Assembly: GCF_003991155.1 (NCBI RefSeq)
Contig: NZ_CP031293.1
Source: Escherichia coli
GTDB lineage: Bacteria; Pseudomonadota; Gammaproteobacteria; Enterobacterales; Enterobacteriaceae
Strand: one strand, 5' to 3'
Length of the DNA stretch: 64,000 nucleotides
Positions within the stretch are counted from its first letter, which is position 1. Every line of letters starts with the position of its first letter. Under the pieces are notes generated by a model. The model ran no database searches. It saw nothing but the letters and a program-made list of their open reading frames with translations, and was not told the DNA's origin. Both the position numbers and the translations under genes were made by a program. Shown one piece after another: positions 25,395-50,109 of this stretch.

Positions 25395-26444
25395 TCAGTC
25401 TGTTAGTGTGCGATTATCGATAACAAAACGATATTTCACATCTCCTCGCAGCATTCGCTCATAGGCTTCATTAATTTGATCGGCCCGAATCATCTCTATA
25501 TCAGCCACGATGCCATGTTCGGCGCAAAAATCGAGCATCTCCTGAGTTTCTGGAATGCCGCCAATCATAGAACCGGCTATCGCACGGCGTTTCATGATCA
25601 GGTTGAAAACTTCCGGCGATTTATGCGGTGTCGCAGGCGCACCAACCAGCGTCATGGTGCCATCGCGCTTCAGCAAGGTGGTAAAATCGTCGAGATTATG
25701 TGGCGCAGCTACTGTATTCAAAATGAAATCGAAACTCTTCAGATGAGTCGCCATCTCATCGGCATTGCGTGAGTTAACAACTTCATCGGCCCCCAGGGCT
25801 TTTGCCGCTTCGCGTTTTGACTCAGACGTGGTAAACGCCACCACATGCGCCCCCATCGCGTGGGCCAGCTTGATCCCCATATGTCCCAGACCGCCGATGC
25901 CAACCACGCCCACTTTTTTACCCGGCCCGGCCTGCCAGTGACGTAGCGGCGAATACGTGGTGATCCCTGCACACAACAAAGGAGCCACCGCCGCCAGCTG
26001 CTCTTGCGGGTGACGAATACGCAAAACATATCGCTCATGAACGACGATCTGTTGTGAGTAGCCGCCCAGAGTATGGCCCGGTTCGTCCGGCGTCGGCGAG
26101 TTATAGGTGCCGGTCATGTGATCACAGTAGTTTTCCAGCCCGTCTTCACACTCTTCACAATGTTTACAACTGTCGACAATACAGCCGACACCGACCAGAT
26201 CGCCCGGCGCATGTTTTTCTACCTGATCACCAACGGCTACCACACGCCCCACAATTTCATGACCCGGCACGCAGGGGTAAACCGTCCCCGCCCACTCGGA
26301 ACGGACCTGGTGGATATCGGAATGGCAGACGCCACAGTAAGCGATTTCAATTTTGACATCATGCGGTCCCGGTTCACGCCGGGTAATATCCATCGGTTCC
26401 AGCGGTTGTTTAGCGGAATATGCACCAACAGCTCTGATCTTCAT
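25395..26444 (-). CDS. yahK: NADPH-dependent aldehyde reductase (zinc alcohol dehydrogenase family)
   Basis: 349 aa; zinc-ADH motifs CGVCHSD and GHEIVGRV, Rossmann motif GVVGIGGLGHMG. Confidence 0.9.
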   Translation of the reverse strand: MKIRAVGAYSAKQPLEPMDITRREPGPHDVKIEIAYCGVCHSDIHQVRSEWAGTVYPCVPGHEIVGRVVAVGDQVEKHAPGDLVGVGCIVDSCKHCEECEDGLENYCDHMTGTYNSPTPDEPGHTLGGYSQQIVVHERYVLRIRHPQEQLAAVAPLLCAGITTYSPLRHWQAGPGKKVGVVGIGGLGHMGIKLAHAMGAHVVAFTTSESKREAAKALGADEVVNSRNADEMATHLKSFDFILNTVAAPHNLDDFTTLLKRDGTMTLVGAPATPHKSPEVFNLIMKRRAIAGSMIGGIPETQEMLDFCAEHGIVADIEMIRADQINEAYERMLRGDVKYRFVIDNRTLTD

Positions 26445-26820
26445 TGTGTTTACTCCTGATTAGCTATGTGTATTTGGCGATGCCTGATATGTCATCGCGG
26501 CAAAACGCGTCCATTGAATATAGCCAATATTTAAACCACCCGATCCAGCCCCAACATGCCGCGAGCCTGAATGAAACAGAGCAGCAACGTTCCCCATAAG
26601 GCGAGCGCCTATAAGTGTGATATTTGCTATCCGTAAAAGACAAAAATCGGCAAAACTGATGATATTTTCACGTAGACAAATAGTTATCTACACAACGTCA
26701 ATAAGGGCATATTCTTCAAAGATAATGTCCATTTCTGCCGACACACTCATACTCAGGCCGCCCCACTCCCTGGGGCTTAAATCTCTTACTGTTCACCGTT
26801 GCAGATATATCAAGTTCGTA

Positions 26821-28203
26821 TCAACCTGCCACACTCCCCCACACCAGTTGCCCTTTATGGAACGTTGCGGTTCTCGGCGAGATACGCGCCACCGCCTCGG
26901 CGGAACAGGAGGCGTCCACCAGCACAAAGCTGGCGTCATCCTGCGCTTTGGGCCACACGCGCTCGCCTTTTTCGTTGAGCGGCAATACATCGCCAGTGGC
27001 TAAAAACAGCGAACGGGACAAATTCTGTTCGTTAGGACGAATATAGAGCTGCGCGTAGAGATTGGCTTTTTCCAGCATGTCGCCCAGGCCGTAGGGAGAC
27101 CAGTGGTCGATAACGCTGTCGGTGCCGGTCATGACTTGTACGCCTTTGTCGTGCAACTGTTTGAGCGGCATATGCAGCGTGCCAATCGGCACCGTCGAGG
27201 CGATAGAAATTTGCTGCGCCGCCATCCGGTGCGCCAGTTCATCTACCTGTTGCTCATTGAGCGTTGCCAACGCAAAGGCGTGACTGATGGTCAGCTTGCC
27301 CTTCAGCTGTGGCGTTTTCTCTACCGTTTCAACCATATAATTGATGGCTGCCACGCCCGACGGAGTGGTTTCGTGCAGGTGAATATCGACGCCTTTGTCG
27401 TAGTCCAGCGCAATCTGGAACATGGTGTCGAGGGATTTTTCCATCGCGCCATCGACACTGGTCGGGTCCAGTCCGCCGACGTAATGCGCACCCGCCTGCA
27501 TCGCTTCGCGCATTAAGGGTTCTGATTTCGACAGCAGCAAACCGTGCTGCGGGAAGGCGACAATTTCACACTCGAAGCCCGCCTGACGTCGCGCCAGAAC
27601 CGCCTGCAAATTTTGCAGATTTTTCAGGCCGGAAACCGGTTCGATATTGCAGTGGCTGCGGGCAATGGTGGTGCCTTTCGACTGCAATAAATCGATCAGT
27701 TTTTCCGCCCGCTCCTGCGTGTACGGTTGTAACTCCGGCAGCATTTTCTGCTCGAGTTTGATCATGTCCTGGATGGTGGTGCCTGCCGGGCGATTGAGCG
27801 AGCGCCACGGCCCGCCGTAGAAAGTTTTGTCGAGATGAATATGCATGTCGCGGGTGGTGGGCAGCATCAACTTACCGCCTGCGTCATAGTGCGGCAGCGT
27901 GGCCTCCGGATGCTGCTTGTTCTCGCGCAGGGCAACAATTTTGCCGTTCTGAATCTCTACGGTCTGGTGCGCCGTGCGGGTCTGCACCGCCACACCGTTT
28001 TCGTAGTCAAAACCGGTTTCCAGCAGCACGTTGTCGAGATAGTAGTGCGGGTCAGTGATTTTCATGGTGTTATTTGCCTCGCAGTGGGTTGTGCCAGAGA
28101 CTGCCGCATGGGCGAGCGGCACTGAGGTACCAAACAGCGCGGCGGCGGTAACCATCTTACCGCTCTGGCTCAGAAATTCACGGCGGCTATTGTTTTCTTT
28201 CAT
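26821..28203 (-). CDS. yahJ: amidohydrolase-family deaminase with twin-arginine (Tat) signal peptide
   Basis: 460 aa; N-terminus MKENNSRREFLSQSGKMVTAAALFGTSVPLAHA has an SRRxFL Tat motif; metal-dependent hydrolase fold (HIHLD). Confidence 0.85.
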   Translation of the reverse strand: MKENNSRREFLSQSGKMVTAAALFGTSVPLAHAAVSGTTHCEANNTMKITDPHYYLDNVLLETGFDYENGVAVQTRTAHQTVEIQNGKIVALRENKQHPEATLPHYDAGGKLMLPTTRDMHIHLDKTFYGGPWRSLNRPAGTTIQDMIKLEQKMLPELQPYTQERAEKLIDLLQSKGTTIARSHCNIEPVSGLKNLQNLQAVLARRQAGFECEIVAFPQHGLLLSKSEPLMREAMQAGAHYVGGLDPTSVDGAMEKSLDTMFQIALDYDKGVDIHLHETTPSGVAAINYMVETVEKTPQLKGKLTISHAFALATLNEQQVDELAHRMAAQQISIASTVPIGTLHMPLKQLHDKGVQVMTGTDSVIDHWSPYGLGDMLEKANLYAQLYIRPNEQNLSRSLFLATGDVLPLNEKGERVWPKAQDDASFVLVDASCSAEAVARISPRTATFHKGQLVWGSVAG

Positions 28204-28212
28204 CTTACGTCC

Positions 28213-29163
28213 TTAGGTTTTAATAATATGGGTGCCCGTTTCGCCGCGTAGCGCCGCAGGCAGGCATTCCGGCGTGGTGATAATCACTTTTTTACCGCCC
28301 TGCTCCAGGAACGTCAGGCTGGCGATGATTTTTGGCAACATGCTGCCGGGTGGGAAATGCCCTTCCTGCATATAGCGGGTCATGGTGGCAATATCCACCC
28401 GATCCAGCACCTGCTGCTGCGGTTTGCCAAAGTGAATACACACTTTTTCGACGCCAGTGGTGATCACCAGAATGTCGGCGTGAATTTCACGGGCCAATAG
28501 CGCGGTAGAGAGATCTTTGTCGATAACCGCGTCCACGCTTTGATAATCTCCCGCTTCGGTGCGCACCACAGGAATTCCACCGCCGCCCGCGCCAATCACC
28601 ACAAAGCCTTGTTGGATCAGCGCCTTAATGGCAGGTGCTTCGACAATACGTTTCGGTTCCGGCGAGGCGACCACGCGGCGATAGCCCCGTCCGGCATCTT
28701 CAACAAAACGCCAGTCAGGGTTTGCCTTTTGTAGTTCGTCACGCTGGCTTTCACTAAAGAATGCGCCGATGGGCTTGGTGGGATGGGCAAACCCCGGATC
28801 GTTTTTATCCACTTCCACCTGAGTCACCACGGTGACGGCTTTTTTCTCGCCGTGACGCGCCAGCCGGTTATTCAGCGCCTGCTGGATCAGATAGCCAATG
28901 CCGCCTTGCGTATCCGCCACACAGTTCGCCAGCGGCGTTAAGGGCAGCCCTTCGCGCTCGTGGGCAATCTCCGCGCGGCGTAAATCCAAACCGACCTGCG
29001 GTCCGTTGCCGTGGGTCAGCACAATGTCGTAATCGGAAGCCAGCATTTCCAGCACCGTATCGGCGACGGCCTTCACCGCCTCCGCCTGATGCTCAATCGA
29101 CTGGCTGGCGTTATCTTTGATAATGCTGTTGCCACCAATGGCAACGACCACAAGTTCTTTCAT
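28213..29163 (-). CDS. yahI: carbamate kinase-like protein
   Basis: ORF 28213..29280; ATG at 29163 gives MKELVVVAIGGNSII (amino-acid kinase fold, 316 aa). Confidence 0.82.
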   Translation of the reverse strand: MKELVVVAIGGNSIIKDNASQSIEHQAEAVKAVADTVLEMLASDYDIVLTHGNGPQVGLDLRRAEIAHEREGLPLTPLANCVADTQGGIGYLIQQALNNRLARHGEKKAVTVVTQVEVDKNDPGFAHPTKPIGAFFSESQRDELQKANPDWRFVEDAGRGYRRVVASPEPKRIVEAPAIKALIQQGFVVIGAGGGGIPVVRTEAGDYQSVDAVIDKDLSTALLAREIHADILVITTGVEKVCIHFGKPQQQVLDRVDIATMTRYMQEGHFPPGSMLPKIIASLTFLEQGGKKVIITTPECLPAALRGETGTHIIKT

Positions 29164-29258
29164 GTTGTTATGTCCGCTACAGAGGGTGATGGGGTTATGA
29201 GAGTGAGGTTGCCCTTCTCCCCAAAAGGGAGAAGGTATCGTAAGGTGCGGTTGGAGGG

Positions 29259-30677
29259 TCAGACGCCGTAACGTTCGCACCAGCCAAGAATGGCTTTCTC
29301 GAAGCAGGCGAAGGGTGGATGCACAATGCCCGCGCCAATCATGCCGACGCCCGCATCTTTATGGGCAATGGCGGTGTTGATCACCGGCAGAATGCCGCTG
29401 CTACCCACGCGGGTGATGTCGATTGCCGACGGCACGCCCATAAAACCGAGCAGCGGAATGGTCACGTTGGGGTTTTCGCCGAGAGTGATTTCGCGCATCT
29501 GACGGGAGAAATCGATAGCCTCTTCCACCGTACCGCCCACCAGCGCGACGATTGCAGGCGCGGTCGCCATAGCAAATCCGCCAATGCCGTAGGTTTCGGT
29601 GATGGCGCTGTCGCCGATATCCAGCCCCGAATCTTCCGGCTTATAACCGGCAAACATCGGGCCGATCACCTGCTGCGCCGGACCGGTAAACCATTGCCCC
29701 GGTAATCCGCTGACCCGCAGACCGAACTCGACGCCGTTACGCGCCATGGTGGTCACCACAGTGCTGTATTCGATGCCGTGCGCCGCATCCATCGCCGCTT
29801 TACACATCGCCATCCACGTCGGGCCGGAGAAGTAGTCACTGCTGGCGACAAACTCAAACACTTCGCGCTGTTGCTCGACGGAGTAGCCCGCCTGAATAAT
29901 CCCCGGCGTCAGCGCCTGAATCAGCAGCGTCGTCCCGGCGTTATTGCGGTTATGGCACTCATCGCCCATATGCAGCGCCTGCGCCAGCATTAAGCGCAGA
30001 TCGATTTCGCCGATAATTTTCATCGCGTCGCGCAGCATGGGTCCCTGCACATCGCGCATCCAGTTGAGGCGGTCGATCACGCTCTGGTCATTAGCGCCCA
30101 TACGCAAAATCTTCGCCATCTGCTCGCTCATGTTGGTATAAGCGATGTTGCCGTAGGTTTTGTTTTTCACGATGTGCATAAACATCGAGGCCGAGGTGAC
30201 GCCCGCCATCGATCCCACACAGTCGTGCTCGTGGCACGGCGAGAAAGTGATCTCACCGGAAGCCGCCAGTTCAGCCGCCTCGTCGAGATCTTTCGCCAGC
30301 CCTTCGAACACCAGCGCCCCGGTGACCGCGCCTTTCATCGCGCCGCACATTTTTTCCCAGGTGACCGGCGGCCCGGCGTGAAGAATGGTTTTCGGCGTCA
30401 TGCCCGGCACCACGTTAATCGCCTGATCAAAACCAATCAGCACCGGATGTGACTGAATAATGCGTTCCAGCGCCTGCTGGTTAGCGGCGGCGATTTTGTC
30501 TGCCAGCGGCGAATCGGCAATGTTGTCCAGCGCCTGCACCACCTGCATATTGCCCTGCCCCGGCGGCGTCCAGTCGAGTTGAGTCACTTCTACATGCTGC
30601 TTTTTCAAATCATCGCTAAACATGGCGATGCCGACGTTAATAACGTTCAACGGTTGGCTAAACAGTGACGGGCTCAT
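29259..30677 (-). CDS. yahG: DUF1116 protein (YlbE paralogue)
   Basis: 472-aa ORF; start ATG shares one nucleotide with the yahF stop (TGATG), indicating translational coupling. Confidence 0.8.
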   Translation of the reverse strand: MSPSLFSQPLNVINVGIAMFSDDLKKQHVEVTQLDWTPPGQGNMQVVQALDNIADSPLADKIAAANQQALERIIQSHPVLIGFDQAINVVPGMTPKTILHAGPPVTWEKMCGAMKGAVTGALVFEGLAKDLDEAAELAASGEITFSPCHEHDCVGSMAGVTSASMFMHIVKNKTYGNIAYTNMSEQMAKILRMGANDQSVIDRLNWMRDVQGPMLRDAMKIIGEIDLRLMLAQALHMGDECHNRNNAGTTLLIQALTPGIIQAGYSVEQQREVFEFVASSDYFSGPTWMAMCKAAMDAAHGIEYSTVVTTMARNGVEFGLRVSGLPGQWFTGPAQQVIGPMFAGYKPEDSGLDIGDSAITETYGIGGFAMATAPAIVALVGGTVEEAIDFSRQMREITLGENPNVTIPLLGFMGVPSAIDITRVGSSGILPVINTAIAHKDAGVGMIGAGIVHPPFACFEKAILGWCERYGV

Positions 30678-32224
30678 CAGGCTTCCTCCCCTTTGCAGAT
30701 AAATTCACGCGCCAGCAATCCGGTATTGGTGCTGCTGCTCGCCAGAATCACTCCGGCATCAAGCAGCATCTGGCTTTGTTGTTCTAATGATGGCGTATCA
30801 AGATCGGTACCCAGCACATAGGCGAGAATGATCAACTCGCGTCCTTCGGCAGCGGCGATCGCTTTCGCCTCTTTGATCGCCTCGATGGTGGAACCGACCG
30901 GATCTTCATGCGATCCAAACCCGAGCACAAAATCCATCACGATCACCGCCACTTCTGGATCGCGCGCTTCTTCGATCAACCGGCTGATGCGGTTGGTCGG
31001 GTCAATCATTGGATGCGGCTTGCCGTTGGTAAAATCGTCATCGCCAAAGTCGAGGAAGGTATGTTTGACGCAGCGGTTGATATCTTTCAGGCGGAATTCA
31101 GGATCGGGCTGGATGTTGCTGTAGACATCGCCGTGTTTTTCCATCACCGCGAACATGGTTTCGTCACACAGCGTACCGCCGCAGAACAGGCCACGAATGT
31201 ATTTCTGTTGTGGCTTCAGGCGAGCGCGCACGTCAGCAATCAATGGCTGGTTCAGGGTATGCAGATCGAGATGTTCCTGTTTCACGCCGGAGAGCATTAC
31301 CGCTTTCAGCGCCGCTTCTTTGCTGCCGCGAGCAAACTGTAGCCCCTGCTCATCCACTGGCGTTTCGCCACGACCGAGGAAGCAGACCACCACCGGCTTG
31401 CGGCAGGCACGTGCGCGTTCCAGCACTTTGCGGGCCACCGCAGGCGCAGGCGGTTTGGAGATAAGCACAATGATTTCAGTTTGCGGATCGTTTTCCAGCA
31501 TCCCGATGGCATCGAGCATCATCAGACCGCCGATTTTCTCGCTCAGGTCGCGCCCGCCGGTGCCAATCAGTTGCGAAACGCCGCCGCAAAATTCATGGAT
31601 ACGGACGCTCAGTTCCTGGCTGCCGGTGCCAGATGCGCCAACAATGCCGATGTTGCCGCGACGCACGGCGTTACCAAAGCAGAGCGCCGCGCCGTTGATA
31701 ATCGCCGTACCGCAGTCTGGCCCCATCATCAGCAGCCCTTTTTCGTGGGCCAACTGTTTGAGCGCCAGTTCATCTTCAACTGAGACGTTATCGGAAAACA
31801 GCATCACGTTAAGATCGTTTTGCAGCGCCTGACGCGCTTCGCGAGCGGCAAACAGACCGTTGACCGAAATCACCGCCAGGTTACTTTCCGGGATATGCTT
31901 TTTGGCGCTGGCAATAGTGGCATAGCGTGCTTCATGTGAACCAGTTTGAGCTTTGGTGTTGAACAGTTCTTCAATCTCCACCAGCAACTGCTCGTTGTCT
32001 GCGCCCGCTTTGCCGTTGATGACAATCATCAGGTCGCCGTTTTTCGCCTGCTCCAGTTCCGGCGTCAGCAGCCCTAAATTCTTCAGCACGCCTTTGTTCA
32101 TTTCGGTCGCCATCGCCACAAATGCCTGCTCGACGCCGTCGAGTTTATTTGCACGCGTGGAGATAGACATCAGCGAGACAGAATCAAAATAGGTATTCGG
32201 TTTAATGACTATTTTAACTGACAT
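30677..32224 (-). CDS. yahF: FdrA-like acyl-CoA synthetase (NDP-forming) / succinyl-CoA-ligase-alpha-like protein
   Basis: 515 aa; CoA-binding glycine-rich segments (GIVGASGTG, ISKPPAP); overlaps yahE by 11 nt. Confidence 0.85.
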   Translation of the reverse strand: MSVKIVIKPNTYFDSVSLMSISTRANKLDGVEQAFVAMATEMNKGVLKNLGLLTPELEQAKNGDLMIVINGKAGADNEQLLVEIEELFNTKAQTGSHEARYATIASAKKHIPESNLAVISVNGLFAAREARQALQNDLNVMLFSDNVSVEDELALKQLAHEKGLLMMGPDCGTAIINGAALCFGNAVRRGNIGIVGASGTGSQELSVRIHEFCGGVSQLIGTGGRDLSEKIGGLMMLDAIGMLENDPQTEIIVLISKPPAPAVARKVLERARACRKPVVVCFLGRGETPVDEQGLQFARGSKEAALKAVMLSGVKQEHLDLHTLNQPLIADVRARLKPQQKYIRGLFCGGTLCDETMFAVMEKHGDVYSNIQPDPEFRLKDINRCVKHTFLDFGDDDFTNGKPHPMIDPTNRISRLIEEARDPEVAVIVMDFVLGFGSHEDPVGSTIEAIKEAKAIAAAEGRELIILAYVLGTDLDTPSLEQQSQMLLDAGVILASSSTNTGLLAREFICKGEEA

Positions 32225-33077
32225 AATTCCCTCCGTAGGTTTGGCTCAGCGCACAACCATCGGCCATGCCATACAGCATGTCGCAGCCGGAACTGGAGCC
32301 AATATGTTTAATTTTTTCTATTGCCTGAGTTGCGTTCCCAGGGATGTCATAAATAATGTTATGAATAAAACGATGAATATTTTCCCGGCAGCGTTGTTGT
32401 AATGCGGCTTCCAGCGTTATGGCACTTAATAACGTGGTATTATTTCTGCCGCGTTGCAGACCGAGATAAAATTCCTCTTTGTATTTTTCCGCCGGATGTC
32501 CGGAAATAAATAAAATAAGCGCCAGACCTGTTAAATAATCGTCGGCTGATGGCGTAAGGCCAATCCCTAAGCCCATCATACTGGCGACTGCTGAGGCGAT
32601 ATTTTGTTTATCGTTTACGGCCTGAATAACTGCCCGTCGTTTAATATGTAATTCTTTATTTAACGCCTGATAAAACGGATTATCGCCGCAATAATTAAAC
32701 AGGGTTTCATTTTCCCCCAGGTGCTGATGAATAATGTCATGCCACTGTTGCCAGACGATAAGGTGAAAATTCACAGCGGTCATTTGCAAGGTTGGGGACA
32801 GCCAACGCTGGCAATGACTCATCTCTATATGAAGATGTTGACCAACCGTAATGCCTTGATCGTCAAACTGAACCTTATCACCATGATGGAACAGACCATT
32901 AAAGTGAGTGAGTGCCAACCGACAACTGTTTGGCGCATTGTCGTACTCTTCACAAAGCAGCGTCAGCAACTGCTGGCGGGCCGGAAGTGCGATATTTACC
33001 GCTCTGGCAAAGACCTGTTCAACCTGTCCTTGCCCCCGCTGCGCCAGAAAATCCGCATCCGCAGTTAGCGCCCACAC
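32214..33077 (-). CDS. yahE: DUF2877 protein (YlbF paralogue)
   Basis: 287-aa ORF between yahD and yahF; no catalytic motif recognised. Confidence 0.75.
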   Translation of the reverse strand: MWALTADADFLAQRGQGQVEQVFARAVNIALPARQQLLTLLCEEYDNAPNSCRLALTHFNGLFHHGDKVQFDDQGITVGQHLHIEMSHCQRWLSPTLQMTAVNFHLIVWQQWHDIIHQHLGENETLFNYCGDNPFYQALNKELHIKRRAVIQAVNDKQNIASAVASMMGLGIGLTPSADDYLTGLALILFISGHPAEKYKEEFYLGLQRGRNNTTLLSAITLEAALQQRCRENIHRFIHNIIYDIPGNATQAIEKIKHIGSSSGCDMLYGMADGCALSQTYGGNYVS

Positions 33078-33116
33078 ACACCGTCTTTCTGGTGTGTTGA
33101 TAGCAAGCCTCCCGGT

Positions 33117-33722
33117 TTATGCGCCTGCGGCAATCAGTAACTGCGCAATCTCTTCAAAGCCTCGTTCCCGCGCCAGTTCCAGCGGTGTTTTGCCATATTT
33201 ATCCGTCAGATGCGGGCTGGCACCGTGTTCCAGCAATAACTGGACAATCGCCTGCTGTTTAATCCCGCCATCATTAAGCACAATCGCTTCCAGTAGCGGC
33301 GTCCAGCCTACATGGTTGGTCTGGTTAACGTTAATCTCCGTATGCGCCAAAAGCTCTTTTACAATACTTAAATGGCCTTTTTCACAGGCAGGCGTCAGGC
33401 CGACACCGCCAAAACGGGTTACGCAATTAAGATCGGGTTTAGCCGGTAAAATAATTCGTAGTAGCGTTAAATCATCGTTCAGACAGCTAATTAAAAAAGG
33501 ATTTAAACAGGTATGATCTTGCTTATTAATATCCGCTCCAGCGTCAATTAATGCCTGAACGCAAGCATATTGCTGATATAAACTTGCCAGCGTAATTGCC
33601 GTTTTCCCCTGACGATCGCAGGTATTAATATCGACACCCAGCGCAAGGCAGGTTTTTACTTTATCGATATCACCCTGTTGCGCAGCCAATAAATAGTCGG
33701 CAGGTAGATTTTTTATAGTCAT
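33117..33722 (-). CDS. yahD: ankyrin-repeat protein
   Basis: 201 aa; repeated ankyrin signatures (G-TPL--A---GH---V--LL--GA), e.g. GWTPLLEAIVLNDGGIKQQAIVQLLLEHGA. Confidence 0.85.
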   Translation of the reverse strand: MTIKNLPADYLLAAQQGDIDKVKTCLALGVDINTCDRQGKTAITLASLYQQYACVQALIDAGADINKQDHTCLNPFLISCLNDDLTLLRIILPAKPDLNCVTRFGGVGLTPACEKGHLSIVKELLAHTEINVNQTNHVGWTPLLEAIVLNDGGIKQQAIVQLLLEHGASPHLTDKYGKTPLELARERGFEEIAQLLIAAGA

Positions 33723-33979
33723 TCACATTCCCCTGGTTTTTGTGGCTGTTTTCGATGAATTGAGAATAGCAACGATAATCTGATAAAAGAACCCGCTTAA
33801 ATTTAATTCGCCGTATTTCGCCTTTTTGTTGAATGATGTTCAACAATCTTTTCGCAGTGTGCGGTAGTGCAATATTTGTTTCTTTGACCCGATACCCTTT
33901 CACTCAATCAGGTTTTATTTCTCTATAGTCTGCACATGTAAGAGTAGCTTTCGTCCATGTCTAACCAGAGGGGAACAAG

Positions 33980-34477
33980 ATGAACGGACTCACGGCAACG
34001 GGTGTCACCGTCGGTATTTGTGCAGGGCTTTGGCAGTTAGTGTCTTCACATGTCGGGCTCTCTCAGGGATGGGAATTATTAGGAACCATTGGCTTCGTCG
34101 CCTTTTGCAGTTTTTATGCCGCAGGCGGCGGTAAATCGGGGTTTATCAGAAGCCTGGCGGTTAATTATTCCGGGATGGTGTGGGCGTTTTTCGCCGCGCT
34201 GGCTGCCGGTTGGCTGGCCTCGGTGAGTGGATTGTCCACGTTCTGGGCGAGCGTGATTATGACTGTACCCTTCTCGGCGATGGTGGTCTGGCAAGGGCGT
34301 TTCTGGTTACTGTCTTTTATTCCTGGAGGCTTTCTCGGCATGACGCTATTTTTTGCCAGCGGGATGAACTGGACGGTGACATTACTGGGTTTTCTGGCGG
34401 GTAACTGCGTGGGGATAATTTCAGAATATGGCGGACAAAAATTAAGCGAAGCGACGACTAAACGCGACGGGTATTAA
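33980..34477 (+). CDS. yahC: inner-membrane protein of unknown function
   Basis: 165-aa hydrophobic ORF divergent from yahD. Confidence 0.75.
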   Translation: MNGLTATGVTVGICAGLWQLVSSHVGLSQGWELLGTIGFVAFCSFYAAGGGKSGFIRSLAVNYSGMVWAFFAALAAGWLASVSGLSTFWASVIMTVPFSAMVVWQGRFWLLSFIPGGFLGMTLFFASGMNWTVTLLGFLAGNCVGIISEYGGQKLSEATTKRDGY

Positions 34478-34568: not shown

Positions 34569-35501
34569 ATGAACTCAATTTTTACCGAAGAGAATCTGTT
34601 GGCATTTACTACCGCTGCGCGTTTTGGCAGTTTCAGTAAAGCCGCAGAAGAGTTGGGTTTAACCACTTCCGCCATTAGCTACACCATCAAGCGAATGGAA
34701 ACAGGGCTGGATGTGGTGCTGTTCACTCGCAGTACCCGAAGCATTGAGTTAACGGAGTCCGGGCGTTATTTTTTCCGCAAAGCTACCGACCTGCTGAATG
34801 ATTTTCACGCCATCAAACGCAGCATCGATACTATTTCGCAGGGTATAGAAGCACGGGTGCGCATTTGTATTAACCAACTGCTTTATACGCCCAAACACAC
34901 CGCACGCTTATTACAGGTACTGAAAAAGCAGTTTCCAACCTGCCAGATTACCGTGACGACCGAAGTGTATAACGGCGTCTGGGATGCGATTATTAATAAT
35001 CAGGCGAATATTGCTATCGGCGCGCCCGACACACTGCTGGACGGCGGCGGCATTGATTACACGGAGATTGGCGCGATTCGCTGGGCTTTTGCTATCGCCC
35101 CGGATCACCCGTTAGCCTTTGTGCCGGAACCCATCGCCGAAAGCCAGCTGCGTCTCTATCCTAATATCATGGTGGAAGACACCGCGCATACGATTAATAA
35201 AAAAGTGGGCTGGTTGCTGCATGGGCAGGAGTCGATTCTGGTGCCAGATTTCAACACCAAATGTCAGTGCCAGATTTTAGGCGAAGGAATTGGTTTTTTG
35301 CCGGATTACATGGTCCGTGAGGCGATGGCGCAATCCCTGCTGGTTACCCGACAAATCCATAATCCGCGCCAGGATTCACGCATGTTACTGGCGACCCAGC
35401 ACTCTGCCACCGGTCAGGTGACGCAGTGGATTAAAAAACAATTTGCGCCAAATGGCATATTAACGGGGATCTATCAGGATTTACTGCATCGGGAGAATTA
35501 A
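34569..35501 (+). CDS. yahB: LysR-family transcriptional regulator
   Basis: 310 aa; N-terminal LysR HTH (FTTAARFGSFSKAAEELGLTTSAISYTIKRME). Confidence 0.88.
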   Translation: MNSIFTEENLLAFTTAARFGSFSKAAEELGLTTSAISYTIKRMETGLDVVLFTRSTRSIELTESGRYFFRKATDLLNDFHAIKRSIDTISQGIEARVRICINQLLYTPKHTARLLQVLKKQFPTCQITVTTEVYNGVWDAIINNQANIAIGAPDTLLDGGGIDYTEIGAIRWAFAIAPDHPLAFVPEPIAESQLRLYPNIMVEDTAHTINKKVGWLLHGQESILVPDFNTKCQCQILGEGIGFLPDYMVREAMAQSLLVTRQIHNPRQDSRMLLATQHSATGQVTQWIKKQFAPNGILTGIYQDLLHREN

Positions 35502-41755: not shown

Positions 41756-43444
41756 TTGCAATTTGACTACATCATTATTGGTGCCGGCTCAGCCGGCAAC
41801 GTTCTCGCTACCCGTCTGACTGAAGATCCGAACACAACCGTGCTGCTGCTTGAAGCAGGCGGCCCGGACTATCGCTTTGACTTCCGCACCCAGATGCCCG
41901 CTGCGCTGGCATTCCCGCTACAGGGTAAACGCTACAACTGGGCCTATGAAACGGAACCGGAACCGTTTATGAACAACCGTCGCATGGAGTGCGGACGCGG
42001 TAAGGGGCTTGGCGGGTCATCACTGATCAACGGCATGTGTTACATCCGTGGTAACGCGCTGGATCTCGATAACTGGGCGCAAGAACCCGGTCTGGAGAAC
42101 TGGAGCTACCTCGACTGTCTGCCCTACTATCGCAAGGCCGAGACTCGCGATGTGGGCGAGAACGATTACCACGGTGGCGATGGCCCGGTGAGCGTCACCA
42201 CCTCCAAACCCGGCGTCAATCCGCTGTTTGAAGCGATGATTGAAGCGGGCGTGCAGGCGGGCTACCCACGCACGGACGATCTCAACGGCTATCAGCAGGA
42301 AGGTTTTGGCCCGATGGATCGCACCGTCACGCCGCATGGCCGTCGCGCCAGCACCGCGCGTGGCTATCTCGCTCAGGCCAAATCGCGCCCTAACCTGACT
42401 ATTCGTACTCACGCCATGACCGATCACATCATTTTTGACAGCAAACGCGCGGTGGGCGTCGAGTGGCTGGAAGGCGACAGCACCATTCCGACCCGCGCGG
42501 CGGCGAATAAAGAAGTGCTGTTATGTGCAGGCGCGATTGCTTCACCGCAGATCCTGCAACGCTCCGGCGTCGGCAACGCTGAACTGCTGGCGGAGTTTGA
42601 TATTCCGCTGGTGCATGAATTACCTGGCGTCGGCGAAAATCTTCAGGATCACCTGGAGATGTATCTGCAATATGAGTGCAAAGAACCGGTTTCCCTCTAC
42701 CCTGCCCTGCAGTGGTGGAATCAGCCGAAAATCGGTGCGGAGTGGCTGTTTGGCGGCACCGGCGTTGGTGCCAGCAACCACTTTGAAGCAGGCGGATTTA
42801 TTCGCAGCCGTGAGGAATTTGCGTGGCCGAATATTCAGTACCATTTCCTGCCAGTGGCGATTAACTATAACGGCTCGAACGCAGTGAAAGAGCACGGCTT
42901 CCAGTGCCACGTCGGATCGATGCGCTCGCCAAGCCGTGGGCATGTGCGGATTAAATCCCGCGACCCGCACCAGCATCCAGCGATTCTGTTTAACTACATG
43001 TCGCACGAGCAGGACTGGCAGGAGTTCCGCGACGCAATTCGCATCACCCGGGAGATCATGCATCAACCGGCGCTGGATCAGTATCGTGGCCGCGAAATCA
43101 GCCCCGGTGTCGAATGCCAGACGGATGAGCAGCTCGATGAGTTTGTGCGTAATCACGCCGAAACCGCCTTCCACCCATGCGGTACGTGCAAAATGGGGTA
43201 CGACGAGATGTCCGTTGTGGATGGCGAAGGCCGCGTGCACGGGCTGGAAGGATTACGCGTAGTCGATGCGTCAATTATGCCGCAGATTATCACCGGCAAT
43301 CTGAACGCCACGACGATTATGATTGGCGAGAAAATGGCGGATATGATTCGCGGGAAGGATGCGTTGCCGAGGAGCACGGCGGGATATTATGTGGCAAATG
43401 GGATGCCGGTGAGAGCGAAAAAAATGAGTCGTGATGTGAACTGA
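41756..43444 (+). CDS. betA: choline dehydrogenase (GMC oxidoreductase)
   Basis: ORF 41711..43444 overlaps betB; likely start is TTG 41756, 5 nt after the RBS AGGAGG, giving (M)[17 protein letters not shown] (FAD-binding). Exact start is uncertain. Confidence 0.93.
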
Positions 43445-43975
43445 CTCAGGAACCTATCAGATTGAGAGTTACCGTTCTACTATGAGGACCGAATCCTTAT
43501 ATAAAACACTGAGGTAACTCTCATGCTTCATATCCAGTATTCATGATGCTGGCTTTTTGCTGATATTTAACCCGAACATTCCTGATACAGACTATTAATT
43601 CATTTATCTGCGGCAGATTTTATTTTCTGGATATATTATGAGTGAACAAATCAAACAGGATATCGATCTGATTGAGATTTTATTTTATCTGAAGAAAAAG
43701 GTAGATGAATACCAACAAAACTCTGGGCAGTAATAAACAGCATTCTGATAGAGAGTGCCTGTATAAAGCTGAAGTGACAATGACCGGGAAGGGAACCCGT
43801 TTTCAGGAATGGATGCCTGTCTTTTTCAATTTAAATATCCTGGCATTAGTAATGCCAGGATATTTACAGAAGAGCAGCATAACCATGACGGAACGGGGTT
43901 AAGTCAGGTTGTCCTAAACGCTATTTTCAACCTCGTATGCCTTCTTCAGGTTTATGTCCAGACTTCATATCTCTC

Positions 43976-44671
43976 TCAACAATCCTCAATAATCAGATAC
44001 ACCGCTTTCACCGGGCCATGAACTCCGACGACTTTGATAAGCTCAATATCCGCCGTTGAACTGGGGCCGCTAATGATGTTAATGCAGGAAGGCATTCGTT
44101 CACCGGCCTGCGCTTTCTGATGCAATTTTTCTGCGAGTTGCGCTACACGCGGCAGGATAGTGCTTTTACGCAGGATAAAAAGAGAAGATTCCGGGAGCAG
44201 GCTCAATGAACGCCCGCGCCCGGCGGCGGAAAAAAGAACCACGCCTCCCGATTCGGTTAAACCATATTCAGCATACACTACGCCAACTTTAGCCTGCTCT
44301 GCTTGTGATATGTTCTCAATACCTTTCGCCGGATCCCAAACAACGGCATTGCATTCCTGCTGCAAACGTTCGCTAATCCCCAATTCCTCCAGCCTCGTGT
44401 CACCGCTAATCACGATCGACTGATCTCCCAGCTCTTTACACAGACGTATTGCAGCTTCTGCCGCCTTCGCCTCGCTGGTCAGTTCACAGCGCGTCAACAT
44501 AACATCGCTGGCAAACTGGATAAACGCGTCACAGCGCTGCTGTTGGGTAAGTTGGGTAAGCCGCTCGTTAGCATAGTTGTTTAGCGGCGCATCTTCTGCT
44601 TGCGGTTCAAGTCGCAGCGGGCGACCCAGTGCCTGAGCAACGTTATTCAAAAATTCGCTCCGATTATCCAT
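43976..44671 (-). CDS. ykgG: LutC-like protein (DUF162)
   Basis: ORF 43976..44824; ATG at 44671 gives MDNRSEFLNNVAQALGRPL (231 aa); 8-nt overlap with the ykgF stop. Confidence 0.85.
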   Translation of the reverse strand: MDNRSEFLNNVAQALGRPLRLEPQAEDAPLNNYANERLTQLTQQQRCDAFIQFASDVMLTRCELTSEAKAAEAAIRLCKELGDQSIVISGDTRLEELGISERLQQECNAVVWDPAKGIENISQAEQAKVGVVYAEYGLTESGGVVLFSAAGRGRSLSLLPESSLFILRKSTILPRVAQLAEKLHQKAQAGERMPSCINIISGPSSTADIELIKVVGVHGPVKAVYLIIEDC

Positions 44672-46091
44672 TCTTTTTCTCCTGCGCCTGATGTTTCTTA
44701 AACCAACTACGGAAACTCTCTCCGTCAGCTTCAGGAAGATCGCGTGCTTCCATCCAGTCGCTAATCGCGCCAAATTTGAGTGGTGTTTTGCCGCCATTGA
44801 TAAACCAGCTTGCCGCATGAGCACCAGCCATCATCCCAACTTTCCACAATCCTGGATGACTATTGGCATAAGCGAACATTTTTATCGCCCGTTGCTCTGC
44901 TTTTGCGGTGATCCCTTTTTCAGCCATCACCCGACGATGACGCAAAATCAGTTTTGACAGCGGAATACGCACCGGACACACGCTGTCACAAGCGGTGCAT
45001 AAAGAGCAGGCGTAGGGTAAATCTTTAAAATCTTTATAGCCGCCAAGTAGCGGAGAAATCACCGCACCAATTGGCCCTGGATAAATAGAGCCATATCCAT
45101 GACCGCCAATATGGCGATATGCCGGACAAGTATTCATACAAGCCCCGCAGCGAATACAGCGCAGCACATCCCGAAATTCAGAGGCCAGCACCTCAGAACG
45201 CCCGTTATCGACAATAACCAGATGAAACTCTTCAGGACCATCAACGTGCCCCGCTTCGCGCGGTCCTGTCAGCCAGGTGTTGTATCCCGTCAAACGTGCA
45301 CCAACGGCACTGCGCGCCAGCATGGTGATCAATACATCTACCTCGGCAAACGTGGGGGCAATACGCTCCATTCCCATCACTGCAATATGCGTTTTAGGCA
45401 GCGTGGTACACATTCGCGCATTACCTTCATTGGTCACCAGGCATACCGAACCGGTCTCTGCCACCGCGAAATTACAGCCGGTAATACCTATTTCAGCACT
45501 GAGGAAATCTTCGCGGATTTTTTGCCGGATGAATAAGGTCATTGCTTCAGGCGTTTCCGACCCCTCATAGCCCAGACGTTCGTGTAGCACCCGACGGATC
45601 TGATGGCGATCTTTATGAATTGCCGGGACCACAACATGAGAGGGCGGATCTTGATCCAGCTGGAGAATGTATTCACCCAGATCGGTTTCAATCACCTGAA
45701 TGCCAGCATCCTGCAACACATGATTGACACCAATCTCTTCGGTCACCATCGATTTAGATTTCACCACCTTCCGGGCATTTTTGCGTTGGGCAACCTGTAA
45801 AATGTAGCGGGTAGCGTCTTCTTTGGTTTTTGCAAAATAGACGTGACCGCCGTTTTGCGTCACTTTTTCTGAGAGCTGGTACAGATAAGCGTCGAGATTA
45901 CTCAGAACATGATCACGTATCTGGGCGGCCCGATCGCGCCATTCCTCCCAGTGCCCCAATTCATCGACCATTTTTTGCCGATTTGCCCCGATACGCTGCT
46001 GCGCGTTTGCCACCGCTTTGCGCATGATCGGATCTTCAATTTGCTGACGGATGCGTGTCTTAAAATCTGTATTACTGGTTTTGATCGACAT
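44664..46091 (-). CDS. ykgF: LutB-like iron-sulfur oxidoreductase
   Basis: 475 aa; two 4Fe-4S ferredoxin motifs, CIRCGACMNTCP and CSLCTACDSVCP. Confidence 0.88.
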   Translation of the reverse strand: MSIKTSNTDFKTRIRQQIEDPIMRKAVANAQQRIGANRQKMVDELGHWEEWRDRAAQIRDHVLSNLDAYLYQLSEKVTQNGGHVYFAKTKEDATRYILQVAQRKNARKVVKSKSMVTEEIGVNHVLQDAGIQVIETDLGEYILQLDQDPPSHVVVPAIHKDRHQIRRVLHERLGYEGSETPEAMTLFIRQKIREDFLSAEIGITGCNFAVAETGSVCLVTNEGNARMCTTLPKTHIAVMGMERIAPTFAEVDVLITMLARSAVGARLTGYNTWLTGPREAGHVDGPEEFHLVIVDNGRSEVLASEFRDVLRCIRCGACMNTCPAYRHIGGHGYGSIYPGPIGAVISPLLGGYKDFKDLPYACSLCTACDSVCPVRIPLSKLILRHRRVMAEKGITAKAEQRAIKMFAYANSHPGLWKVGMMAGAHAASWFINGGKTPLKFGAISDWMEARDLPEADGESFRSWFKKHQAQEKKNG

Positions 46092-46101
46092 CTTTATATC
46101 C

Positions 46102-46821
46102 TCAGCGACTCATCAGCACTTCAGCAATATGCATCACTTTGACTTTCTGCCCTTCCCGTTGTAATCGTCCACTGATGTTCAGCAGGCAACTCACGTCAGC
46201 ACCAATTAAATACTCAGGGCGGGCTTCCATCAGGTGCACAACCTTTTCTTTCACCATCTCGCCGGATATTTCGGCCATTTTGACCGAGAACGTGCCGCCA
46301 AATCCGCAGCAGGTATCCTGTTCAGCAAAGGTCAACAGCTCCAGTCCACGCACATTTTTCAGCAGCGTAAGTGGTTCGTCCTTCACCCCCAGCTTACGGG
46401 CCAGGCTACAAGATGGGTGATACACCGCTCTCCCTTGCAAACTGGCACCTACATCGACTACCCCTAATGTATTAACAATAAAAGAGGTGAGATCCTGCAT
46501 ACGCGCGGCAACCTTTTCGGCACGTGATGCCCATTCAGGTTCATCCGCCAGATACGTCGGGTAACTTTTTACGGCATAGGTGCAAGAGCCAGCCGGTGAA
46601 ATAATGGGATCGTCGTTATCCTCCAGTGCGGCGATCAGATTTTTCATCCCTGGAATCGCTTCTTTGATATAACCACTATTGATCGCAGGCTGACCGCAGC
46701 ATCCCTGTTTCTCCGGGAAATTTACGCGACAGCCGAGTTTTTCCAGTAGCAGCACGGAGTCTCGTGCCATTCTTGATTTCAGGGCGTCACCAATACAGGT
46801 GACAAAGAAATTGACATTCAC
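46102..46821 (-). CDS. ykgE: LutA-like cysteine-rich (CCG-domain) oxidoreductase subunit
   Basis: 239 aa; cysteine-rich motifs CCG and CSCA-type; first gene of ykgEFG. Confidence 0.85.
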   Translation of the reverse strand: MNVNFFVTCIGDALKSRMARDSVLLLEKLGCRVNFPEKQGCCGQPAINSGYIKEAIPGMKNLIAALEDNDDPIISPAGSCTYAVKSYPTYLADEPEWASRAEKVAARMQDLTSFIVNTLGVVDVGASLQGRAVYHPSCSLARKLGVKDEPLTLLKNVRGLELLTFAEQDTCCGFGGTFSVKMAEISGEMVKEKVVHLMEARPEYLIGADVSCLLNISGRLQREGQKVKVMHIAEVLMSR

Positions 46822-47346
46822 AACTAATACTCCATTACTTCATGCCCATTTATGCCCGATGGTTCCCCCCTTCCGGGGGATCAATCATCAATAAATATGG
46901 CGTTCTTTTTTAATTGGCTAGCAACATACCACCCCTCATTTGTATGACAAATGATAATCTTTCATCTAAACTTCAAATGCAATAACTAATTTTATTTCTT
47001 TCGGCATCGCTCACATTTTATAGGGAAATCGACGATCATTTTTGGCATAAGAAATCCATTTAAAAAGGCTACACCCCTTATACCTATTCAGAGCTACTTA
47101 TTCAGGGGTTATTGAGATATACACTGATGGTGCACAAAAAAATCACCGACAATAATCACGCATCAAGTAATAGTCGGGATTTTATTTAATTGAAGCAATT
47201 TAGTTTGCATTTTTATTTAAAAACTGAGCTAGAGTCCATCAAAAAAATATATAAAGCCCAAAACCACCGTTGGAAATAGAAATAGTTGAAAGGCTCACAA
47301 CTCCCGGAATGCGGATTATCTTTGCCCTGATTTCTGGCGGTTTTAT

Positions 47347-48201
47347 TCAGGGTGCAAGCTGTCTGACCCTTTCCCGATATTCTCCCGGGGTACAACCAAA
47401 CTCGCGAACAAACGCCTTGTGAAAAGATGATTCACTGGCATAGCCTACTGACTCAGCGATCACCACAACAGGGAGCGTTTCCCGGGAAAACATCTGGGCC
47501 GCTATTTGTAGACGCAACTTTGTTAATACAGCCAGCGGCGTGGTTCCGGAAACATCACGGAAAAGCTGGGCAAAACTTGCCCGGGACATGTGGGCGATGC
47601 TGGCCAGCGATTCGACGGTCCAGGCGTGTCCTGGCATTTCCAGCATTTGCTGTATTACCGCACCAAGACGTGGATGTAGAAGCAAACTGAGAATGTTTTT
47701 CTCTGTATTAACCTGTGCAATCCACTCACGCACCGCGAGGGTAAAGAATGTAGCGCAGATCTGGCTACACAGAGCATCCACTCCCGGCATTGCCGATCTG
47801 GATTCCTGTTGTAAAAACGGGATCGCCTCCCTCAGCCAGTTATATTCCACGCTATGGTTCACTGGTGCTACAAACAGCGTTTCCGGCAAAGACGTTAAAA
47901 AATAACGCGCCGAATGTTGCAGCCGAAGAGTGCCACAGACAATACAGGTCGATTCATTATCGACATGACTCAGGCGATGAGCTGAATTTTGTGGTAGCAG
48001 GACCACATTTCCCGGGCGTAATGTAAAAATCTCTCCCGTCGGCATTTCCAGCTTCGCCGCTCCTTGCGTTAACGCATGCCAACGAATAACCGACAATTCC
48101 CCGGCACCATGTGGAAGTTGCCAGTCACTTCCTAACACGCAATTCTTATCGATCGTTCCTTGTGGAGCGTTAAGCATCAACAAACGGCTAAGAGCATCCA
48201 T
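47347..48201 (-). CDS. rclR: AraC-family reactive-chlorine-responsive activator
   Basis: ORF 47347..48252; ATG at 48201 gives MDALSRLLMLNAPQG (284 aa); C-terminal AraC HTH; divergent from rclABC. Confidence 0.9.
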   Translation of the reverse strand: MDALSRLLMLNAPQGTIDKNCVLGSDWQLPHGAGELSVIRWHALTQGAAKLEMPTGEIFTLRPGNVVLLPQNSAHRLSHVDNESTCIVCGTLRLQHSARYFLTSLPETLFVAPVNHSVEYNWLREAIPFLQQESRSAMPGVDALCSQICATFFTLAVREWIAQVNTEKNILSLLLHPRLGAVIQQMLEMPGHAWTVESLASIAHMSRASFAQLFRDVSGTTPLAVLTKLRLQIAAQMFSRETLPVVVIAESVGYASESSFHKAFVREFGCTPGEYRERVRQLAP

Positions 48202-48427
48202 ATCAGACTCCTGAGTGGTTTTTTGATTACAAACACCAACAATCTTAGTCAATAATTAATCTAATACCATCAAATAGTTAATCATGATTTTTGTTTTGTG
48301 ATTCTGATTAAGAAAAAGAAAATACCAGACGATAAGACAAAATATCAAGCGTTGTGAAGAAATGTTATTTGCTCTTTTGCGTCTATAGTCATGATGTCAA
48401 ATGAACGCGTTTCGACAGGAAATCATC

Positions 48428-50098: not shown

Positions 50099-50109
50099 GG
50101 ATGTTTACA

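Follow-up and report, generated by a model that had tools for sequence, protein, structure and literature searches.

YahJ of the Escherichia coli yah operon: a predicted deaminase with an already recorded twin-arginine signal peptide, encoded beside putative cytoplasmic transcarbamylase and carbamate kinase genes

The window analyzed here is a 64,000-nucleotide (64-kb) stretch of the E. coli chromosome that contains the yah genes (Table 1). RefSeq labels yahJ as an 'amidohydrolase family protein'; the reverse complement of positions 26821-28203 translates into 460 residues, with an N-terminus of MKENNSRREFLSQSGKMVTAAALFGTSVPLAHA followed by AVSG. The stop codon of yahI lies at 28213-28215, leaving a gap of 9 nt between yahI and yahJ. 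A divergent LysR gene was seen at all the enterobacterial loci that we read, and yahC only in two versions of the operon, both without the 516-aa transporter gene described below (a small upstream ORF in Aeromonas was tried as a YahC homologue and rejected). Matches from a promoter and terminator scan of positions 26300-34100 were no more numerous than in shuffled sequence, so the scan is uninformative.

Table 1. Features of the yah locus (positions in the 64-kb window)
Feature	Position	Strand	Basis
yahJ CDS, 460-aa precursor, stop codon included	26821..28203	-	ORF list, translation, RefSeq annotation (identical strain)
Mature YahJ (predicted), residues 34-460: variable linker 34-48, then AtzC/cytosine-deaminase-like amidohydrolase domain	26824..28104	-	PDB sequence search
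Met47 codon, internal, sole plausible alternative start	28063..28065	-	aligns with N-terminus of signal-less relatives
Signal peptide, residues 1-33, MKENNSRREFLSQSGKMVTAAALFGTSVPLAHA	28105..28203	-	translation; conserved in Enterobacterales, Aeromonas, Shewanella
A-H-A signal peptidase I site, residues 31-33, predicted cleavage after A33	28105..28113	-	read from sequence
Hydrophobic core, residues 17-30, MVTAAALFGTSVPL	28114..28155	-	hydropathy and sequence
Twin-arginine motif S6-R7-R8-E9-F10-L11	28171..28188	-	RRxF[LI] in 94/95 homologue clusters
Shine-Dalgarno AAGGA, 6 nt 5' of yahJ ATG	28210..28214	-	read from sequence
yahI, carbamate kinase family, no signal peptide	28213..29163	-	NCBIfam PRK12352, 648 bits vs 266
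yahG-yahI spacer with hairpin; site of 516-aa transporter gene in orthologous operons	29164..29258	-	comparison with loci L002, L003, L005
yahG, AllG-family subunit, no signal peptide	29259..30677	-	Pfam PF06545 AllG, E=4.5e-89
yahF, FdrA/AllF-like subunit, CoA-binding and CoA-ligase domains	30677..32224	-	NCBIfam FdrA subfamily, 489 bits vs 433
yahE, AllH-family subunit	32214..33077	-	Pfam PF11392 AllH, E=1.8e-28
yahD, ankyrin-repeat protein, first gene of operon, no signal peptide	33117..33722	-	orthologues with the cluster in loci L013, L015, L017
yahC, DUF1097 small membrane protein, divergent from operon	33980..34477	+	
yahB, LysR-type regulator, divergent from operon	34569..35501	+	

The N-terminus of YahJ has the tripartite layout of a signal peptide: a polar n-region (MKENNSRR), an h-region (MVTAAALFGTSVPL) and a c-region (AHA). 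Residues S6 to L11 follow the Tat consensus (S/T)-R-R-x-F-L-K, the final position being S, not K. The original prediction placed an S-R-R-x-F-L motif, a hydrophobic core and an AxA site within 28105-28203, and translation confirms all three, with the coordinates exact. The maximum 19-residue Kyte-Doolittle mean over the whole protein is 1.49, under the membrane-span threshold, and the h-region is therefore modest and no membrane anchor. The A-x-A site reads AYA, AHA or ALA among homologues; neither the c-region nor the early mature region of YahJ carries a positive charge, and a basic 'Sec-avoidance' residue is absent from the c-region. A lipoprotein signal was rejected, as there is no lipobox (the cleavage region is L-A-H-A followed by A-V-S, and no cysteine lies closer than residue 41). 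Of the Met-started ORF candidates in the window that reach 60 aa, 606 in all, yahJ alone has [ST]RRxF[LI] within its first 35 residues, and about 0.2 such N-termini are expected from amino-acid composition per proteome of 4300 proteins: the motif exceeds chance. It is also conserved, RRxF[L/I] being kept in 94 of 95 clusters of full-length close homologues (these span Escherichia, Citrobacter, Klebsiella, Serratia, Xenorhabdus, Erwinia, Cedecea, Pragia, Aeromonas and Shewanella), and between E. coli and Citrobacter yahJ codons 1-21 differ by 10 synonymous changes and one non-synonymous change. Judged from these comparisons, the signal peptide is real, translated and under selection.

Behind the signal peptide, YahJ matches the NCBIfam amidohydrolase model PRK06846 over residues 49-459 (715 bits; cut-off 447) and Pfam Amidohydro_3 (66 bits vs 29.7). 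A PDB sequence search returned AtzC-type enzymes and cytosine deaminases as the nearest solved structures, and no characterized close homologue was found. The best structure matches (E=4e-44 to 5e-30) are AtzC, the N-isopropylammelide isopropylaminohydrolase (2qt3, 4cqb), and the related 6nbo: YahJ residues H121, H123, H275, H277-E278, H308 and D362 align with the metal and catalytic motifs (HxH, HxH(E/D), SH and D) of 6nbo and 2qt3. These chains, about 400 residues long, begin to align near their own N-terminus, at YahJ residues 104-107, and so contain nothing that corresponds to its signal peptide. AtzC is a cytoplasmic enzyme of s-triazine breakdown, whereas yahJ does not lie in a triazine cluster. 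E. coli CodA (1k6w; E about 1e-16), a mononuclear metal deaminase acting on an amino-heterocycle, belongs to the same amidohydrolase branch; however, CodA is cytoplasmic, and YahJ falls far below the NCBIfam cut-offs for cytosine deaminases (104, 83 and 70 bits vs 438, 483 and 403), so that it was rejected as a cytosine deaminase proper (CodA equivalog). Mature YahJ would thus be a mononuclear-metal amidohydrolase of the AtzC/cytosine-deaminase branch, and its family position suggests deaminase chemistry.

No signal peptide or membrane segment was found in YahD, YahE, YahF, YahG or YahI, which bears out the original view of the rest of the operon as cytoplasmic. In the all pathway every known step is cytoplasmic. 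Pfam and NCBIfam matches place members of the AllF/FdrA, AllG and AllH families and a carbamate kinase together in the yah operon, and on this sequence basis YahEFG and YahI appear to be paralogues of the AllFGH oxamate transcarbamylase and its carbamate kinase. AllFGH is an oxamic transcarbamylase, its activity shown with oxalurate (PMC11326118); the yah genes are not mentioned in that paper, and our literature search on yahF, yahG and yahI found nothing on YahEFG. AllFGH and AllK belong to the anaerobic branch of allantoin degradation (PMC11326118), encoded by a comparable operon with the same four protein families, to which the yah operon adds the ankyrin protein and the amidohydrolase predicted to be exported. 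For the yahG-yahI spacer, K-12 'yahH' has been described as filled with REP23 sites (PMC11551758).

Our comparative picture is qualitative, as it comes from 12 loci read by hand. The operons of Citrobacter, Serratia and Aeromonas carry, between yahG and yahI, a gene for a 516-aa membrane protein; in one distant operon this gene comes first, and that operon still ends in a YahJ-like gene with a Tat signal. The gene is absent from the E. coli chromosome (tblastn found no remnant in the 64-kb window); of 5426 complete genomes, just 142 have it, for the most part on plasmids. Searches of the 516-aa protein against Pfam, NCBIfam and PDB sequences gave nothing but noise at E<=1, and hence no membership of a curated family. 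Its AF2 model (pLDDT 82, pTM 0.79), however, has SVCT1, UraA, BicA, SLC26Dg and AZG2 as top Foldseek matches (E=1e-6 to 1e-4, TM 0.4-0.55), so that, as modelled, it is a transporter of the UraA/SLC26 fold (the NCS2/AzgA/SulP '7+7' elevator type). Source databases label its homologues 'xanthine permease' or 'AGZA family', which are labels with no test behind them. The linkage AllH-AllF-AllG-CK-YahJ(Tat) holds even at a locus whose YahJ-like protein has as little as 35% identity. Brevibacillus has the same ank-AllH-AllF-AllG-CK cluster with a 152-aa cytoplasmic CDA-fold deaminase instead of YahJ, together with an NCS1 allantoin-permease-like transporter and a PucR regulator; this replacement suggests that the step in question is the deamination of a nucleobase-like compound.

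Outside the complete cluster, YahJ-like Tat enzymes are found without AllFGH and carbamate kinase at Priestia, Microvirga-like and Caulobacter loci, and YahJ could therefore act independently of YahEFGI. The gene of the Caulobacter relative with an RR signal follows immediately on one for a TonB-dependent receptor. The Priestia orthologue (52% identical, with an SRRRFI signal) has tatA and then tatC directly 3' of its gene and a Xan_ur_permease gene facing it. This resembles the phoD-tatAd-tatCd locus of Bacillus subtilis, where a Tat substrate gene precedes its own tatA-tatC pair, except that the B. subtilis substrate is a phosphodiesterase; we found no study of the Priestia arrangement in the literature.

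The signal is not a feature that had escaped notice or annotation: YahJ is already listed as a predicted Tat substrate (PMC3027627, PMC7549933). In Table 2 of PMC7549933 it stands beside AmiA, AmiC, SufI and MdoD, E. coli Tat substrates that are established and bear no redox cofactor. These share with it an N-terminal motif of the S/T-R-R-x-F-L type, an h-region of modest hydrophobicity, an AxA site and the nature of a soluble periplasmic enzyme (predicted for YahJ); YahJ differs in that its signal peptide is reportedly usable by Sec as well (PMC6788121). The experimental status of this signal peptide (ssYahJ) rests here on the account that PMC6788121 gives of Tullman-Ercek 2007 and Fisher 2008: ssYahJ is a published secretion tag that drives reporters into the periplasm and is accepted by both Tat and Sec. 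On that account the export signal has been known for nearly 20 years, having been listed, put to the test in fusions to reporters and employed for secretion in biotechnology, and the observation of a Tat signal is therefore correct and not new. The reporter-fusion check proposed at the outset has thus, by the same account, already been carried out: reporters are exported, but as both Tat and Sec recognize ssYahJ, strict Tat dependence of native YahJ does not follow. Our literature search returned no localization data for full-length native YahJ.

Taken as a whole, these observations are probably best explained by a deaminase, YahJ, that is exported in the manner of a Tat substrate and feeds cytoplasmic YahEFGI. 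Translation from the ATG at 28203 would yield a precursor whose twin-arginine signal peptide, 33 residues long, is cleavable; this precursor probably folds and takes up a single metal ion in the cytoplasm, would cross the inner membrane via Tat (possibly via Sec) and would then be cleaved after A-H-A. In the periplasm it would most likely strip an amino or imino group off a nucleobase-like N-heterocycle; the product would be taken up and passed to a cytoplasmic YahEFG complex and the YahI carbamate kinase, yielding carbamoyl phosphate and then ATP, NH3 and CO2. The uptake step in related genera would be served by the operon-borne 516-aa transporter, which the chromosomal operon of E. coli does not have. 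We infer Tat as the native route. It had also been predicted that the product is imported for the YahEFGI steps: import is a plausible step, since a transporter gene occupies just this position in orthologous operons, while the feeding of YahEFGI is the part that we infer. A pathway divided between two compartments is a reasonable reading. In the arginine and agmatine deiminase pathways a deiminase is likewise followed by a transcarbamylase and a carbamate kinase. The functional analogy covers hydrolysis of an imino or amino nitrogen, carbamoyl phosphorolysis, ATP formation and a dedicated transporter; the enzyme families, however, are unrelated, and the first enzyme of the deiminase pathways is cytoplasmic.

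Two alternatives concern the start of the protein and its route. Met47 was taken up as a possible start because the NCBIfam family model has its first position at residue 49; both this model, PRK06846, and most relatives at no more than 46% identity set in at the position of residues 47-55, without the extension, and a GAGG sits 11 nt 5' of the Met47 ATG. If Met47 were the true or an additional start, YahJ would be a cytoplasmic or dually localized enzyme and the pathway would fit within one compartment. But 11 nt is a poor spacing, whereas the Shine-Dalgarno sequence before Met1 is well spaced and present in every yahJ orthologue read; by homologue comparison Met47 is not kept in Klebsiella, Erwinia, Cedecea and other orthologues and is missing from many that bear the signal peptide; and purifying selection on codons 1-21 is strong. 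With Met47 variable and the signal peptide kept, we rejected this start, which is very unlikely, and a start downstream of the twin arginines, for which the original prediction had allowed, was not borne out. A route mainly through Sec is less hard to imagine, though still rather unlikely: native YahJ would be periplasmic, exported unfolded and metallated outside the cytoplasm, with the twin arginines incidental or secondary. The dual acceptance of ssYahJ described in PMC6788121 and the uncharged c-region and early mature region speak for it, but what the 94 of 95 clusters keep is a twin-arginine motif, beyond mere positive charge, the h-region is weakly hydrophobic, and the Priestia orthologue adjoins its own tatA-tatC.

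Other alternatives leave YahJ exported and question its relation to its neighbors. It may be a stand-alone periplasmic scavenger that frees ammonia from an external amino compound and shares only regulation with YahEFGI. The loci without AllFGH and carbamate kinase in Priestia, the Microvirga-like genome and Caulobacter agree with such a role, as does the lack, in the yah operon, of a hydrolase to open the ring of a deaminated heterocycle and so supply the transcarbamylase with a carbamoyl compound. However, the linkage with AllH-AllF-AllG-CK is kept at only 35% identity, another deaminase fills the cluster where YahJ is absent, and only 9 nt separate yahI from yahJ; we regard the scavenger role as unlikely, while giving it some weight. 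There is scarcely any likelihood that YahJ instead takes along, through Tat, a 'hitchhiker' that has no signal of its own, such as YahD, or that YahD is an export chaperone specific to YahJ. YahD orthologues have no signal peptide and do accompany YahJ-like genes even without AllFGH (locus L013), but Brevibacillus keeps the ankyrin protein in the absence of a YahJ-like enzyme, and the ankyrin gene is missing at the Priestia yahJ-tatAC locus.

The Tat signal of YahJ, found in standard E. coli Tat-substrate lists and in a commercial-style secretion tag, adds nothing new in itself. The role of the exported enzyme is modestly interesting, as YahJ is among the few E. coli Tat substrates without an assigned function; in a mouse model of ExPEC, a strain with yahJ deleted lost out slightly in competition (CI 0.70; PMC7549933), and the operon partners appear to be paralogues of the recently solved AllFGH transcarbamylase. 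The search for the substrate can build on the in-operon transporter of the relatives, the tatAC adjacency in Priestia and the CDA-type replacement in Brevibacillus, and the complete operons of Citrobacter and Serratia may be better suited to it than E. coli K-12. A tentative wider reading, which we hold as a possibility on the doubtful side, is that E. coli has, in the yah cluster, a decayed version of a widespread, uncharacterized catabolic module that harvests nitrogen and ATP from an amino- or imino-N-heterocycle, with the deaminase step exported in some lineages. Such a module may comprise an ankyrin protein, an AllHFG-like transcarbamylase, a carbamate kinase, a deaminase and an unclassified UraA-fold transporter, often with a PucR or LysR regulator, and its substrate may be a nucleobase-, hydantoin-, triazine- or creatinine-like compound. 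In Proteobacteria and some Bacillaceae an added Tat signal may have moved the deaminase step out of the cytoplasm, and in Brevibacillus an unrelated deaminase may carry it out inside the cell.

Several complete genomes match the 26500-28500 region of the window at 100% identity and annotate it as yahJ ('amidohydrolase family protein'); the window is E. coli chromosome. The encoded protein (460 residues) starts with MKENNSRREFLSQSGKMVTAAALFGTSVPLAHA, followed by AVSGTTHCEANNTMKITD. The original prediction of a Tat signal peptide in YahJ is correct as an observation, with exact coordinates and a confirmed motif, and the Tat reading is sound. Among 606 Met-started ORF candidates of the window, yahJ is the only one with [ST]RRxF[LI] within its first 35 residues, and, going by amino-acid composition, a set of 4300 proteins would be expected to contain about 0.2 such N-termini; the twin-arginine motif is thus no chance match.

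Searching 5.8 billion proteins, we obtained 120 clusters of close YahJ homologues (from Escherichia, Citrobacter, Klebsiella, Kluyvera, Trabulsiella, Serratia, Xenorhabdus, Erwinia, Cedecea, Pragia, Aeromonas and Shewanella), 95 of them full-length. RRxF[L/I] is kept in 94 of these 95, most commonly as SRREFL, with an Ala/Gly-rich core and then an AxA site behind it. Over codons 1-21, the E. coli and Citrobacter genes differ by 10 synonymous and one non-synonymous codons, and a Shine-Dalgarno sequence precedes the Met1-equivalent start in every orthologue read. The sole other candidate start, Met47, which lines up with the beginning of the NCBIfam model, was rejected: it is absent from many orthologues that keep the signal. 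Among representatives clustered at 50% identity, the RR signal is found only in the nearest clades (a Microvirga-like group, Priestia, Caulobacter and a few metagenomic groups), and most relatives at ≤46% identity begin directly at the catalytic domain, so the signal is an extra of particular clades in an enzyme family that is normally cytoplasmic. Five E. coli yahJ alleles (P0009, P0012, P0015, P0027 and P0034) carry differing in-frame internal deletions of 26-46 residues (residues 140-166, 200-235, 207-235, 265-310 or 297-322), some of them removing catalytic motifs, with the signal peptide intact in all; these deletions could be gene decay or assembly artefacts.

The YahJ Tat signal is already known, being an established and experimentally exploited feature. 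The fusion experiment proposed with the original prediction was reportedly done in a 2007 study (Tullman-Ercek), in which 29 putative E. coli Tat signal peptides were fused to GFP-SsrA, MBP and PhoA. A table of predicted E. coli Tat substrates that builds on Dilks et al. 2003 includes b0324 yahJ under the name 'putative deaminase' (PMC3027627). The YahJ signal peptide is also counted among the 25 substrates that TatP predicts for an ExPEC strain, and loss of yahJ reportedly left the bacteria at a slight competitive disadvantage in mice (CI 0.70, p=0.02; PMC7549933). In both E. coli and Vibrio natriegens, 'ssYahJ' has been put to use as a secretion tag (PMC6788121). In the literature searched, we found no report on where the full-length native protein localises.

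Against the NCBIfam model PRK06846 ('amidohydrolase'), YahJ scores 715 bits (cut-off 447); cytosine deaminase was rejected as an assignment, as the protein scores below the cut-offs of the NCBIfam models of that enzyme. The nearest solved structures are AtzC-type N-isopropylammelide isopropylaminohydrolases (6nbo, E=4e-44; 2qt3, E=5e-30), with cytosine deaminases next, and MH121IH123LDK, DIH275LH277E278, SH308 and D362 of YahJ align with their metal and catalytic motifs. This fits a predicted mononuclear-metal hydrolase that takes an exocyclic amino or alkylamino group off a heterocycle. That metal loading in the cytoplasm is the reason for Tat use, we only infer.

The neighbourhoods of two relatives give independent genomic support for the signal peptide. 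In Priestia (GCA_004348885.1), a 52% identical orthologue with an FSRRRFI signal is followed immediately 3' by tatA and then tatC, which looks like a substrate-linked Tat pair of the phoD-tatAdCd kind, and it faces a xanthine/uracil-family permease gene (Xan_ur_permease). In Caulobacter sp. RHG1, an RR-signal relative lies directly behind the gene of a 1099-aa TonB-dependent receptor, a locus which suggests that the substrate reaches the periplasm by uptake across the outer membrane. Export of YahJ is very likely in our judgement. Sec is a possible route; the conserved motif, together with the linkage to tatAC in Priestia, favours Tat, which is probably the main native route.

The original prediction also described an exported enzyme within an otherwise cytoplasmic operon, accurately, since YahD (ankyrin repeats), YahE (AllH family), YahF (FdrA/AllF-like), YahG (AllG family) and YahI (carbamate kinase) show neither a signal peptide nor a convincing membrane segment. 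AllFGH is a three-subunit oxamic transcarbamylase (oxalurate + phosphate to oxamate + carbamoyl phosphate; PMC11326118); the yah paralogues are not discussed in that paper. An orthologous ankyrin-repeat protein, likewise without a signal peptide, travels with the cluster in very different bacteria, and in one locus a YahJ-like gene is its sole cluster companion; a role as chaperone, scaffold or regulator is conceivable.

Positions of the features discussed, in the window and in the comparison loci
Feature	Locus	Position	Strand	Remark
yahJ	window	26821-28203	minus	
yahJ codons 1-33	window	28105-28203	minus	exact match
Shine-Dalgarno AAGGA	window	6 nt 5' of yahJ ATG	minus	overlapped by yahI stop codon
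yahG-yahI spacer	window	29164-29258		96 bp
~516-aa transporter gene	L003; L002; L005; L015	6942-8492; 7300-8847; 7461-9011; 2228-3763		corresponds to the window spacer
Ankyrin protein	window (yahD); L013; L015; L017	33117-33722; 11547-12116; 3783-5039; 2403-3011		
yahC (DUF1097 small membrane protein)	window; L006	33980-34477; 3688-4182		
Priestia yahJ region	L010	8374-12438		
Caulobacter yahJ region	L014	6672-11458		
Brevibacillus cluster	L017/L018	516-11554		
IncF plasmid operon	L016 (NZ_CP128971.1)	42875-51308		

The operons of Serratia, Aeromonas and Citrobacter have an extra gene between yahG and yahI, encoding a 515-516-aa protein with 10-12 hydrophobic segments. It has no sequence match in Pfam, NCBIfam or PDB; its homologues, 65-91% identical across Proteobacteria and Firmicutes, are labelled 'xanthine permease' or 'AGZA family' in the source databases. 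An AlphaFold (AF2) model built from 30 sequences (pLDDT 82) has SVCT1, UraA, BicA, SLC26Dg and AZG2 as its best fold matches, which share the 7+7 elevator-transporter fold. The protein seems to represent a transporter family that has not been curated. Neither E. coli nor Klebsiella aerogenes has the gene in its yah operon. The window spacer holds a hairpin (inverted repeat CCTTCTCCC-TTTT-GGGGAGAAGG), with no transporter-gene remnant found in the window, and in K-12 this position is a REP-filled pseudo-ORF, 'yahH' (PMC11551758). Only 142 of 5426 complete E. coli genomes have the transporter gene, mostly on IncF plasmids within a second, Citrobacter-like operon copy (106 of 152 matches are on plasmids). 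For example, pMTY1886_IncF carries LysR, ankyrin, AllH, AllF, AllG, transporter and carbamate kinase genes between IS elements, the yahJ-like gene having been cut away through IS insertions. A DUF1097 gene adjoins only the two transporter-less operons and is absent from the three transporter-bearing enterobacterial/Aeromonas versions; with only five loci, this exclusion may be a coincidence.

In a distant operon (locus L015) the order is transporter (71% identical to that of Serratia), Ank/TPR, AllH, AllF, AllG, carbamate kinase and a YahJ-like protein (35% identical to YahJ, RR signal still present), with a PucR-type regulator gene adjoining. In Brevibacillus we found a PucR gene and, divergent from it, a run of genes for Ank, AllH, AllF, AllG, a transporter of the NCS1 allantoin-permease-like kind, carbamate kinase, a CDA-fold deaminase (152 aa; HAE and PCxxC motifs; signal peptide absent) and a 517-aa transporter; here an unrelated small cytoplasmic deaminase stands in place of the YahJ-type amidohydrolase (non-orthologous replacement). 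This replacement argues that YahJ supplies a deamination of a nucleobase- or ureide-like compound, and it also shows that an extracytoplasmic location of the step is a lineage-specific choice.

In the mechanism we propose, a YahJ precursor would be made from Met1, exported and processed after A33, and in the periplasm it would act on an amino-heterocycle by deamination. Uptake of the product would fall to the operon transporter in species that have it and to some other route in E. coli. Once inside, the product would yield a carbamoyl compound directly or after ring opening; phosphorolysis of this compound by YahEFG would give carbamoyl phosphate, which YahI would use for ATP synthesis. That YahJ feeds YahEFGI in this way is a tentative and somewhat doubtful proposal, with weak points: the yah operon encodes no ring-opening enzyme, and YahJ-like Tat enzymes occur also without AllFGH. 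The unclassified transporter family, tatAC beside the Firmicute orthologue and the CDA-type replacement of YahJ are useful clues to the function of the yah operon; a further contextual clue is that, on the evidence, the operon has become or remained incomplete in E. coli.
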